DNA of 64,000 bases from Escherichia coli (lineage in GTDB: Bacteria > Pseudomonadota > Gammaproteobacteria > Enterobacterales > Enterobacteriaceae): the NCBI RefSeq assembly GCF_022846255.1, contig NZ_AP025682.1; one strand, written 5' to 3'. Under the pieces are notes generated by a model, which saw only the letters and a list, made by a program, of their open reading frames with translations, had not been told where the DNA came from and did not search any database. Position numbers and translations under genes: made by a program. Below, one piece after another: positions 41,895 to 48,149 of this stretch (the first letter of the stretch is position 1; every line of letters begins with the position of its first letter).

Positions 41895-44081
<2,187 letters not shown>

Positions 44082-44108: not shown

Positions 44109-46259
44109 TTAACGCCGCCGACGGCGTGGGGATTTCGTTTTTTCTTTCTTTTTAACTATACCTTCAGGGACTTCCGGTTGCTCTATCGGAAATACCGGTA
44201 ATGCATCCAGTAGTCGCTTGCCATAATTTTTTGTCAGCAAGCGTTTGTCGTAGATAACCACTTCCCCCCAGCAACCGTGGCTTCGAATCAGTCGCCCAAC
44301 CTGCTGAATCAGGTTAAACGAAGCGCTCGGCAGGCTTTGCACCTCAAACGGATAGCGGTTGAGGCTTTTCAGCCATTCACCTTCGGTGATCACCACCGGG
44401 CTGTCGATGGGCGGAAAAGCGATCTTGTGGATATGCACCTGGCTGAGCAGATCGCCTTTCAGATCAAGACCTTCGGCAAAGGACTGTAAGCCCACCAGCA
44501 CGCTACGCTCACCGTTGGCAACGCGTTTGCGGTGCAGTTCAACTAAGCGATAACGTGGCTGATCGCCCTGCACCAGCAACATCAGGCGTAAATCCGTCAC
44601 ATAGTCGAGAAAGCGCTGCATCGCACGCCCGCTGGCAAACAGCACCAACATACCGAGATGTTTTTTGCTCTCCACCTGTTCACGGAAAAAGGCCGCCATT
44701 TCGGCAATGTGCTGCTCTTCGTTGTCGATGGAAGGCTCAACGCGCATCCGGGGAATAACAATTTTGCCCTGTTCACAGTGGTTAAAAGGGGAATCCAGTG
44801 CCACAAAACGGTCGCCCGCTTTCTCTTTCAGCCCACTCATCTCCTGCAAACGCGAAAAACTGTTCAGCGAACGCAAGGTTGCGGAGGTAACAATAATGTG
44901 CGGAATACTGCGCCACAGCAGCCTTTCCAGCTGATCGCTAACACGTATTCCCACGCAGTGAAACCAAAGGTGTAGCTGCCCTTCGCGCTCTTCCCGCGTC
45001 GCCCATTTGGTCACCGGCGCACCGGAAGATTGCGCCAGAGACGCCAGCCGCCAGAGTTTGCTTTGCGCCTCGAACATCCCCAATGCGCGGTTCATCTGCA
45101 AAATCAACCGATGCAGACGTACAATGTCATGGCTGCCGGTTTTCTCACTTAAATCGTTAAGAAATAACTCCGCCAGGCCACGCAGCATCTCGGTGAGTTT
45201 TGCCAGCCGCTGGCAGATCTCCAGCACTTCATCTGGCAGTTCGCCCATCGCAAAACGGTGCTCTGCCTCCTGCCCGGCAGGCATGTAGAGATTGAGAATG
45301 TTGTTTAACGAGGCGATAAGCTCATACAACTCTTCACAATGCGCATTCAAACGTTCAGGGATCGCCAGCGGCGGGATGGTCTTCGGGCGAAACTGCTCCA
45401 TGCAGGTAGCGACCAGTTTCGTGAACAAGTCCAGCTGTAGCCGATACCACGGCGCGGTGATTTCGGCGCTCATCTCCAGCGCATCCCGCGCCACATCCGG
45501 CAGGTGATGACCTTCGTCCAGCACCAGCAGTAAATTTTTCGGGTCAGGCAATACCGCTTCGCTTTCCATCGCCGCCATCACCAGCGCATGGTTTGCCACC
45601 ACCACTTCCGCTTCCTGAATTTCCCGACGAGCGACAAAAAACGGGCATTCGCGATAGTAATAACAGTTGCGGTTGAGGCAGCTGGCCTTGTCGGTACTCA
45701 AACGACGCCAGAGATCGTCATCAATGGCGATATCAGTATGATCGCGCAGACCATCCCATTTATAAGTGTCGAGATCGCCCTTCAGCTTCGCACAACGTTT
45801 TTGCTCTTCCTGATTGTTCGGCGTCAGTTCATCGTCAAGAAACGCCAGCAGATCCTGTTGCGTGGGCTCAGTGCTGGCGAGCGCTGTCAGATTACGCGGG
45901 CAAACGTAGCGCCCACGCCCAAAAGCGGCAGTGAATTTAAGATCGGGAATGATCTTTTTCAGCAGCGGTAAATCTTTGCTGTAGATCTGATCCTGCAATG
46001 CCACGTTGGCGGTACTTACCACCAGCGTTTTTTGCTCTTCGCGGGCAATGGCGATGCCGGGGATCAAATAGGAGAGCGTTTTCCCAACGCCGGTAGGGGC
46101 TTCAATCGCCAGATGCCGCCCTTCTTCTCCGGCCAGCGTTTTGGCGACGTCCGCAATCATCTGCCGCTGCGGCGCACGGGGAATAAAGTCGGGGATCTGT
46201 TCCTGAAGCGCCTTATACCAGGCGGCAATTTGCGCTTTAAGCGCGGCGGTTAATGCCAT
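44109..46259 (-). CDS. dinG: ATP-dependent DNA helicase DinG (716 aa)
   Basis: ORF track; MALTAALKAQIAAWYK N-terminus; Walker A APTGVGKT; DEGH box; Fe-S Cys cluster. Confidence 0.95.
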   Translation of the reverse strand: MALTAALKAQIAAWYKALQEQIPDFIPRAPQRQMIADVAKTLAGEEGRHLAIEAPTGVGKTLSYLIPGIAIAREEQKTLVVSTANVALQDQIYSKDLPLLKKIIPDLKFTAAFGRGRYVCPRNLTALASTEPTQQDLLAFLDDELTPNNQEEQKRCAKLKGDLDTYKWDGLRDHTDIAIDDDLWRRLSTDKASCLNRNCYYYRECPFFVARREIQEAEVVVANHALVMAAMESEAVLPDPKNLLLVLDEGHHLPDVARDALEMSAEITAPWYRLQLDLFTKLVATCMEQFRPKTIPPLAIPERLNAHCEELYELIASLNNILNLYMPAGQEAEHRFAMGELPDEVLEICQRLAKLTEMLRGLAELFLNDLSEKTGSHDIVRLHRLILQMNRALGMFEAQSKLWRLASLAQSSGAPVTKWATREEREGQLHLWFHCVGIRVSDQLERLLWRSIPHIIVTSATLRSLNSFSRLQEMSGLKEKAGDRFVALDSPFNHCEQGKIVIPRMRVEPSIDNEEQHIAEMAAFFREQVESKKHLGMLVLFASGRAMQRFLDYVTDLRLMLLVQGDQPRYRLVELHRKRVANGERSVLVGLQSFAEGLDLKGDLLSQVHIHKIAFPPIDSPVVITEGEWLKSLNRYPFEVQSLPSASFNLIQQVGRLIRSHGCWGEVVIYDKRLLTKNYGKRLLDALPVFPIEQPEVPEGIVKKKEKTKSPRRRRR

Positions 46260-46272
46260 GAGAAAACCTGAA

Positions 46273-46293
46273 ATACTGTATAAACAGCCAATA
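46273..46293. promoter_or_regulatory. LexA (SOS) box of dinG
   Basis: tactgtataaacagccaata (reverse complement tattggctgtttatacagta), CTG...CAG-type SOS-box-like, about 15 nt upstream of the dinG start. Confidence 0.75.
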
Positions 46294-46365
46294 TTGTGGC
46301 ATTTTTCGGTTTTCAGGGGTAATGGTTTTTCTGTTTCGGGAAAGCGGCTCGCAATAACCAGCAGG

Positions 46366-46563
46366 ATGATGCGTAAAGCGCTTCGCGCTAAATTCGAACA
46401 ACATGCAGAACTGCGTACACTCTTGCGGGCAACCGCGTCCGCAAAACTGGTTGAGCATACGCAAAATGATGCTTACTGGGGAGATGGCGGTAATGGTCAG
46501 GGCAAGAATCGCCTGGGGTACCTTTTAATGGCGTTGCGCGGACAATTGGCTGCGGAGAAGTAA
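46366..46563 (+). pseudogene. ybiA: 3' remnant of ybiA (DUF1768 N-glycosidase family); 5' two-thirds missing
   Basis: only the C-terminal roughly 65 codons (MMRKALRAKFEQHAEL...NDAYWGDGGNGQGKNRLGYLLMALRGQLAAEK) carry the family motif; the in-frame upstream open frame runs through the dinG LexA box and start codon. Confidence 0.7.
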
Positions 46564-46644
46564 CGCATCGGGTGGCTTGTGGGCGTTAAAACAGAGAAAT
46601 CTTTTTGCCGCGCTCGCAAATGGCTGACAAGTGCTTGTTGTGAA

Positions 46645-46746
46645 ATGCCGGATGCGGCGCGAGCGCCTTATCCGGCCTACAAAAACATGCACATTCAATA
46701 TATTGCAGAGTTCACGTAGGCCTGATAAGCGTAGCGCATCAGGCAG
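46645..46746. repeat. BIME-1/RIP-like element: REP, IHF-like linker, REP
   Basis: atgccggatgcggcgcgagcgccttatccggcctac - linker with tcaatatattg - gtaggcctgataagcgtagcgcatcaggc; followed by hairpin catgccgggcatagcccggcatg at about 46768..46789. Confidence 0.85.
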
Positions 46747-46814
46747 TTTTGTGTTTGTCATCAGTCTCATGCCGGGCATAGCCCGGCATAAAAGATTACT
46801 GCGCAGCGGCAGGT

Positions 46815-48149
46815 TTACGCGGACGGCGGCGACGTTGTTGTTCGCCTGCCGGTTTGGCATCGACGAGACGGTTTTTCTGCGGGCTTCGCGTTACCAGACT
46901 TCGCACCACTTTCCGTACGGCGTGGTTGCTGTTGACCGCGACCACCGCCCTGTCCACGACCGCCGCCACGTTGCTGGCGACCGTTCTGGATCGGTTCGGC
47001 TTTGATTGACGGGTCCGGCTCATACCCCGGAATCGCAATGCGCGGGATCTCTTTTTTCAGCAGTTTTTCGATATCACGCAGCAGTTTGTGTTCATCAACA
47101 CACACCAGCGACAATGCTTCGCCAGTTGCCGCCGCACGGCCAGTACGCCCGATACGGTGAACATAATCTTCCGGTACGTTTGGTAACTCATAGTTGACGA
47201 CGTGCGGCAACTCTTCGATATCCAGACCGCGCGCAGCGATGTCAGTTGCCACCAGTACACGAATATCGCCCGATTTAAAATCGGCCAGCGCACGAGTACG
47301 CGCACCTTGCGATTTATTACCGTGGATCGCCGCACTACGGATGCCGTCTTTATTAAGCTGTTCAGCCAGATGGTTAGCGCCATGTTTGGTACGGGTAAAC
47401 ACCAGCACCTGCTGCCAGTTCCCTTTCCCAATCATATGCGACAGCAATTCGCGTTTGCGTTTCTTATCGACAAAGTGAACGTGCTGGGTCACCTGATCAG
47501 ACGCAGTATTGCGGCGTGCCACTTCGATTTCCAGCGGGTTGTGCAACAGTTTTTCCGCCAGGGCTTTAATATCGTCAGAGAAGGTCGCGGAGAACAACAG
47601 GTTCTGGCGCTTCGCTGGCAGTTTTGTTAACACGCGACGGATATCGTGGATAAAGCCCATGTCGAGCATGCGGTCAGCTTCATCAAGGACGAGGATTTCA
47701 ACCTGATCCAGCTTCACTGCATTTTGATGTTCCAGGTCCAGCAGACGTCCCGGCGTTGCCACCAGCACATCAACGCCGCCGCGCAACTTCATCATTTGTG
47801 GGTTAATGCTGACACCGCCAAACACCACCAGCGAACGAATGTTCAGATATTTGCTGTAATCACGGACGTTTTCGCCAATCTGCGCCGCCAGTTCACGGGT
47901 CGGGGTAAGAATGAGCGCGCGTACCGGACGACGCCCTTTGGCGTGCGGCTGGCGAGTGATCAGGTGTTGCAACAACGGCAGCGTAAAGCCCGCTGTTTTG
48001 CCGGTACCGGTCTGGGCGCTGGCCATCAGGTCGCGGCCTTCCAGCACCGCAGGGATCGCCTGCTGCTGAATAGGGGTGGGTTCACGGTAACCCTGCTCGG
48101 CAACGGCGCGCAGGATATCAGGGCTTAAACCCAAAGAATCGAAAGACAT
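46815..48149 (-). CDS. rhlE: DEAD-box RNA helicase RhlE; reading frame shifted near the 3' end (444-aa ORF; expected C-terminal tail is in another frame ending at 46796)
   Basis: ORF track; [17 protein letters not shown]-terminus, [23 protein letters not shown] motifs; Arg-rich tail ...[23 protein letters not shown] is encoded out of frame in ORF 46796..47038. Confidence 0.85.

Follow-up and report, generated by a model that had tools for sequence, protein, structure and literature searches.

The window analysed here, a stretch of 64,000 nucleotides of Escherichia coli DNA, raises the question of what became of ybiA, and of whether its loss reached the control of the neighbouring gene dinG. 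In E. coli K-12, dinG and ybiA are divergent genes whose start codons lie 119 bp apart. In the window, the ATP-dependent DNA helicase gene dinG is intact (44109..46259, minus strand, 716 amino acids), as read from the list of open reading frames and from its annotation in the 100%-identical stretch of strain ATCC 11775. Its neighbour on one side is ybiB (43119-44081, minus strand), and on the other side, beyond the ybiA site, lies rhlE (46796..48149, minus strand, with an open frame at 46815-48149). The first-pass annotation had recognized only the C-terminal ~65 codons of ybiA in this interval and had argued that a full-length gene with the same end would have to begin inside dinG.

The ybiA remnant and its junction

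Both observations were borne out. A tblastn search with K-12 YbiA as the query returned one significant match in the 64 kb, at 46351-46560 (E = 6e-33); the remaining matches had E values of at least 0.07, and no second YbiA-like sequence was found in the window. A gene of 483 nt ending at 46563 would start at 46081, within dinG. The remnant occupies 46364..46563 on the plus strand (codons 96-160 plus the stop) and aligns with residues 96-160 of the YbiA structure 2B3W (E = 2e-31). Its predicted protein is 85% identical to K-12 YbiA over the last 65 codons, and, judged from these alignments, its homology to YbiA is far above chance level. Full-length YbiA of Escherichia has 160 amino acids, which rules out the possibility, named in the first-pass annotation, that complete members in this lineage are only about 65 amino acids long.

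The remnant resembles K-12 YbiA (b0798; PDB 2B3W; PF08719, TIGR02464) in its location, divergent from dinG and upstream of rhlE, and in keeping the motifs NDAYWGDGG and GKNRLGYLLM. It differs from K-12 YbiA in lacking the start codon, the ribosome-binding region, and residues 1-95. With the ATG and the preceding 15 bp deleted, the fragment has no start codon or translation signals of its own. Profile comparisons gave the same picture of a partial domain. The remnant covers only positions 88-162 of the 163 positions of the Pfam NADAR model, short of a complete domain, and only positions 84-152 of the 153 positions of TIGR02464. The TIGR02464 scores of the 65-aa remnant (61.9 bits) and of a longer 101-aa open frame that contains it (62.4 bits) are both below the curated NCBIfam cut-off of 73.7 bits, compared with 169.5 bits for full-length K-12 YbiA.

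The active-site residues of NADAR enzymes sit in both halves of the domain, as exemplified by the P. nicotianae enzyme (E43, K50, K75, R79, and W89; E125, D130, and W133) (PMC11543638). When these residues are placed on YbiA by homology, rather than through an alignment, the remnant keeps the C-terminal VEHT...NDAYW part and has an incomplete active-site set, with everything N-terminal of residue 96 gone. As both halves of the fold contribute to the active site, the C-terminal 41% of this one domain could not be an enzyme, and neither N-glycosidase nor ADP-ribosyl-guanine hydrolase activity is expected of it. The remnant failed every sequence-based test of membership that we ran, and we classify it as a gene fragment and not as a member of the NADAR/YbiA family.

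The locus has the properties of a pseudogene, namely partial homology at a syntenic site, flanks that are conserved across the gap, and an intact gene in relatives. It is an ordinary pseudogene that RefSeq already marks in over a thousand genomes, with coordinates that correspond to 46366-46563 of the window. The PGAP note in ATCC 11775, Nissle 1917, and S87 reads 'incomplete; partial in the middle of a contig; missing N-terminus', and the product is named NADAR family/domain-containing protein.

We aligned the region with K-12 and with two other intact alleles. The alignment to K-12, which the first-pass annotation had proposed as a check, mapped both endpoints of the loss to one clean gap of 298 bp, and the flanks are conserved. 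The gap covers the 15 bp before the ybiA ATG together with nt 1-283 of the gene (483 nt in all), so that 94 codons plus one base of the 160 codons (59%) are gone. The junction lies at 46362..46367, where the exact point is ambiguous within the microhomology CAGGAT. In intact alleles, both breakpoints fall within an imperfect 12-nt direct repeat whose copies are 298 nt apart. The copies in the intact allele of strain SCPM-O-B-8794 are CGGATAATGCGT and CAGGTGATGCGT; they agree at 9 of 12 positions and match exactly over ATGCGT, and those at the K-12 breakpoints match exactly over ATGCG. The junction in the window, CAGGATGATGCGT, is a hybrid of both repeat copies.

We infer that the deletion most likely occurred by replication slippage (slipped-strand) or microhomology-mediated joining between these imperfect repeats. 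Before the event, a full-length ybiA of 160 codons would have stood divergent from dinG and would have encoded a NADAR-family N-glycosidase/guanine-ADP-ribose hydrolase. The part lost includes the N-terminal 59% of the NADAR domain with its N-terminal active-site residues, in addition to the start codon and the ribosome-binding region. Without this part, no YbiA enzyme can be made, and the surviving 65 codons would be a decaying remnant.

The dinG control region and the open frame across it

The retained part of the dinG-ybiA intergenic region (46260..46363) corresponds to 104 of the 119 bp in K-12 and differs from K-12 by two substitutions and zero indels. The first 78 nt upstream of the dinG ATG (46259) are identical to K-12. 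The LexA (SOS) box of dinG is located at 46274..46293 and is assigned to the minus strand; it reads TACTGTATAAACAGCCAATA on the plus strand. It is identical to the K-12 box and has the same position relative to the dinG ATG, with no indel between them. The box is also the exact reverse complement of the published 20-nt dinG SOS box AATATTGGCTGTTTATACAGTATTT (TATTGGCTGTTTATACAGTA; Table 4 of PMC3009722), which qualifies it as the operator. The deletion ends 70 bp past the box, on the side away from dinG. Since it stops that far beyond the box, dinG and its SOS control would be unaffected; on sequence grounds, the deletion left both the dinG start codon and the SOS control site untouched, as the first-pass annotation had stated.

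The extent of the deletion also bears on the ybiA promoter. Only 15 bp upstream of the ybiA ATG were deleted, so any promoter located more than 15 bp upstream survives, and this geometry suggests that the promoter region is largely retained. A consensus promoter/terminator scan of both strands of 46150-46850 gave zero matches and did not locate the ybiA promoter. The initiation elements that were lost for certain are the start codon and the ribosome-binding region. The earlier estimate that about two-thirds of ybiA and its promoter were missing is correct as to a large loss, which amounts to 59% rather than two-thirds, but is not supported as to the promoter.

An open frame does run through the LexA box, as had been reported. 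A mechanical ORF of 101 codons spans 46258..46563 on the plus strand; it begins with an ATG that shares bases with the dinG start codon of the opposite strand, and 36 non-homologous intergenic codons are fused in frame to the remnant. No homology to YbiA was detected in these 36 upstream codons. The length of the deletion (298 = 3 x 99 + 1) explains the fusion, as it joined the remnant to another, stop-free frame of the intergenic DNA. The 36 codons (108 bases) were equally open in 7.3% of shuffles. This openness is not significant, and an ORF of this length across the LexA box is nothing unusual and calls for no special explanation. The ORF was also considered as a signal in its own right and was rejected, being open by chance in 7% of shuffles.

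A different reading makes the remnant a new small gene that has taken on its own function. It would encode 64-65 aa from one of the two ATG codons at the junction (46366 and 46369) or 101 aa from the ATG at 46258, and would possibly be expressed from the retained ybiA promoter beside the LexA box. On sequence grounds, translation of the 64-65-aa peptide is conceivable. Several features are compatible with this. The frame of the remnant is open in every allele inspected, E. albertii included, the junction ATGs stand after AGGA, the intergenic region is mostly kept, and the dN/dS of the remnant is below 1. However, the AGGA precedes the ATGs by merely 0-2 nt, which is poor spacing, and 59% of a single-domain fold is gone, N-terminal active-site residues included. 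PGAP calls no gene there, promoter-like and terminator-like sites were absent from the consensus scan of 46150-46850, and the openness of the 36 upstream codons is at the level of chance.

The substitution pattern bears on the same question. We obtained a dN/dS of ~0.3 for the remnant versus intact alleles and of 0.15 between two intact alleles over the same codons, on the basis of only ~20 substitutions, many of which probably predate the deletion; 0.3 is below the neutral value of 1. Such values would fit a constraint that was relaxed along part of the branch. Natural variants among the deposited carriers alter the most conserved residues of the NDAYWGDGG/GKNRLGY motifs (GDGG to GDSG, YWGD to YWED (YWEDGG), and NRLGY to NRPGY or NHPGY), which argues against purifying selection on the remnant. 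We therefore consider it very improbable that the remnant, at 64-101 aa, is a DNA-damage-linked small protein with its own function expressed beside the LexA box. If it were, that function could explain why the allele crossed species and became fixed in a major pathogenic lineage.

Carriers in E. coli and E. albertii

We profiled the junction across complete E. coli genomes with an 80-bp probe centred on it, requiring a coverage of at least 80%. The junction was present in 1,119 of 5,426 genomes (about a fifth), at one place in each, and its carriers include ATCC 11775, Nissle 1917, and ATCC 25922. Positions 46100-46800 of the window are 100% identical to the type strain ATCC 11775. The RefSeq pseudogenes EAS44_RS16900 (ATCC 11775) and HW372_RS16125 (Nissle 1917) have the same junction as the window, with 100% and 99.3-99.6% identity, respectively. 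Over a 24-kb stretch there was no exact match in complete RefSeq genomes; the best was the O150:H6 strain FEX669 (99.9%). The exact 101-, 65-, and 64-aa translations have been deposited from UTI89, APEC O1, 536, SE15, IMT5155, and O25b:H4-ST131, and older GenBank names for these ORFs of 64-101 aa include 'swarming motility protein ybiA', 'N-glycosidase YbiA', and 'DUF1768'. We take the named carriers (ATCC 11775, Nissle 1917, UTI89, 536, SE15, ST131, and others) to belong to phylogroup B2. In a large E. coli lineage to which classic B2 strains belong, the allele is fixed; the B2 label derives from the named strains.

Intact ybiA is present in ~3,420 genomes (4,542 covering a 701-bp query minus the 1,119 carriers), and ~880 complete E. 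coli genomes have other content at the ybiA site. The 701-bp query includes the stretch of REP-like palindromic repeats that, read from the sequence, separates the remnant from rhlE (46641..46795), and it matched at 22 places per genome in the median, in keeping with a dispersed repeat. The REP-like palindromes are gccggatgcggcg...cgccttatccggcctac and aggcctgataagcgtagcgcatcaggc.

The ybiA remnant of the window shows no difference from that of ATCC 11775, whereas the nearby rhlE has a private deletion of 8 bp. The sequence CGCCGAGA, present in ATCC 11775 and K-12, is missing between 46860 and 46861. It is one copy of a near-tandem CGCCGAGA/CGACGAGA repeat, and its loss frameshifts the basic C-terminal tail of RhlE, giving 444 aa versus 453-454 aa ending in ...PRKPAAAQ. 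None of the 5,426 complete E. coli genomes had this deletion (best match of an 80-bp probe 90.9%, with the 8-bp gap); either it is a mutation private to this strain or the sequence is in error at this point.

The rhlE deletion indicates, in a general way, that errors in this assembly are possible, and the 5' part of ybiA might likewise exist and have been collapsed out of the assembly, a concern that the first-pass annotation had raised. But 1,119 complete genomes, each assembled independently, have the identical junction, as do three E. albertii assemblies, and PGAP already annotates the stretch as a pseudogene. We give an assembly or sequencing artefact practically no credence.

The three E. 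albertii assemblies with the identical junction (type strain NBRC 107761, GCA_003914095.1, and GCA_002937375.1) also have the same gene order. The E. albertii remnant is 98% identical to that of the window. It differs at the base just left of the junction, which is C, as in K-12, and not G, and the type strain represents another species background, with the flanking dinG and rhlE diverged by 6-7%. We compared the divergence of the window from the E. albertii type strain and from K-12 along the locus. In dinG (44800-46000), it was 6.2% from E. albertii and 2.2% from K-12, and in rhlE (46900-48149), it was 7.3% and 4.1%, respectively. In the remnant plus 77 bp downstream (46364-46640), the order was reversed, with 1.8% (5/277) from E. 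albertii and 12.0% (33/275) from K-12; the reversal between remnant and flanks was significant (Fisher p = 1e-10). A segment of ~280 bp groups the window with E. albertii, whereas the flanks group it with other E. coli. The remnants of the window and of E. albertii also share derived substitutions, including V96M, A113T, E128Q, E151A, and E154G.

This reversal of divergence implies that the deletion would have arisen once and then spread between species by recombination, with a short homologous-recombination patch carrying the allele between E. coli and E. albertii. The relative divergences favour, without proving it, transfer from E. albertii to a B2 ancestor: the segment differs from other E. 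coli alleles by 12%, which is 3-5 times the within-species divergence of the flanks and only ~2 times their interspecies divergence. No intact ybiA was found among the E. albertii assemblies examined. Some Shigella boydii strains belong to E. albertii, and a YbiA labelled 'Shigella boydii', which falls in the E. marmotae-like cluster, was considered as an E. albertii-type progenitor; it proved to be a K-12-like allele of the ordinary kind.

A junction that formed twice, through recurrent deletion at the direct repeats and without transfer between species, would also be shared, and the short direct repeat at the breakpoints could favour repeat events. Against this, the species have the entire remnant segment in common, at 1.8% compared with 12% from K-12 and with flanks showing the opposite (p = 1e-10), and the five derived substitutions listed above occur in both. 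Independent recurrence is in our judgement very unlikely.

Vertical inheritance of an ancient deletion from the common ancestor of E. albertii and E. coli, with intact ybiA re-imported later into non-B2 strains, is also improbable. The remnant does share S120, N138, Q140, and A158 with the E. marmotae, MOD1-EC7003, and SCPM alleles and not with K-12, the locus is clearly prone to replacement, and B2 is an early-branching E. coli phylogroup. However, this scenario predicts that the remnant should be at least as diverged as the flanks (6-7%). The observed divergence is 1.8%, although pseudogenes should evolve faster, and ybiA is intact in E. marmotae.

A single origin followed by recombination between species is the reading that we prefer. 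We regard it as very likely that ybiA in the window was killed by a single 298-bp deletion, that the control of dinG is unaffected, and that the allele was exchanged with E. albertii.

The two non-type E. albertii assemblies are 2.8% from the window in dinG (44800-46000), compared with 6.2% for the type strain, and one of the two is 97.7-100% identical to the window across 45100-46259. These values suggest that some E. albertii strains took part in another, larger exchange with E. coli at the locus.

The dinG-rhlE gap and the distribution of YbiA

Other Escherichia genomes have lost ybiA in different ways. In O157:H7, the type III effector gene espX2 takes the place of the entire ybiA region; in strain MLI106K1, a RelE/StbE toxin gene and a hypothetical gene, together counted as a toxin-antitoxin pair, are found there instead. 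Escherichia sp. MOD1-EC7003 shows an independent inactivation, in which a REP-like palindromic element stands in for roughly codons 14-108, between the first ~40 nt of ybiA and its last ~50 codons. These cases resemble the window in that ybiA is destroyed and the dinG promoter and LexA box are spared. They differ from it in being replacements by foreign or repeat DNA, whereas the window has a simple internal deletion with no insert. Counted from the dinG start codon, the left breakpoints are at 95/96 for the espX2 island, 99/100 for the toxin island, and 104 bp for the 298-bp deletion, i.e., those of the two islands are 4-9 bp from that of the deletion, and the dinG control region is spared in all three. 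With breakpoints clustered in this way, the dinG-rhlE gap stands out as a rearrangement hotspot.

Outside E. coli, intact YbiA with at least 90% identity was found only in E. marmotae, and, beyond these species, E. albertii, and one unclassified Escherichia, the next relatives, at ~70% identity, were from planctomycetes and myxobacteria and not from other Enterobacteriaceae; these results come from pattern- and word-limited scans. The GTDB outgroup scan used two peptide patterns, NDAYWGD and MMRKALRA, and gave no match in Salmonella, E. fergusonii, and others, which is suggestive of absence only. This sparse distribution hints that ybiA itself was horizontally acquired by Escherichia.

Our literature search found no paper on a ybiA pseudogene or on the combination of ybiA, pseudogene, and phylogroup B2. 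Given the RefSeq annotation, we consider only two points to be new, and mildly so: that E. albertii has the same pseudogene, and that breakpoints cluster at this site. The rest was already known.

It has been stated that K-12-type YbiA is 'consistently found' beside dinG (PMC11125620). This fails for ~37% of complete E. coli genomes, which are without intact ybiA at that position. The lineage that includes UTI89, 536, ST131, and Nissle 1917, with extraintestinal-pathogenic and probiotic strains, would be without YbiA, as would E. albertii. The older GenBank names on the remnant ORFs of 64-101 aa are misleading in this respect. The results obtained with K-12 YbiA on swarming, on N-glycosidase activity towards riboflavin intermediates, and on guanine de-ADP-ribosylation would not be transferable to strains with the deletion. 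The shared junction would provide a clean example of a loss-of-function allele that crosses species by homologous recombination.
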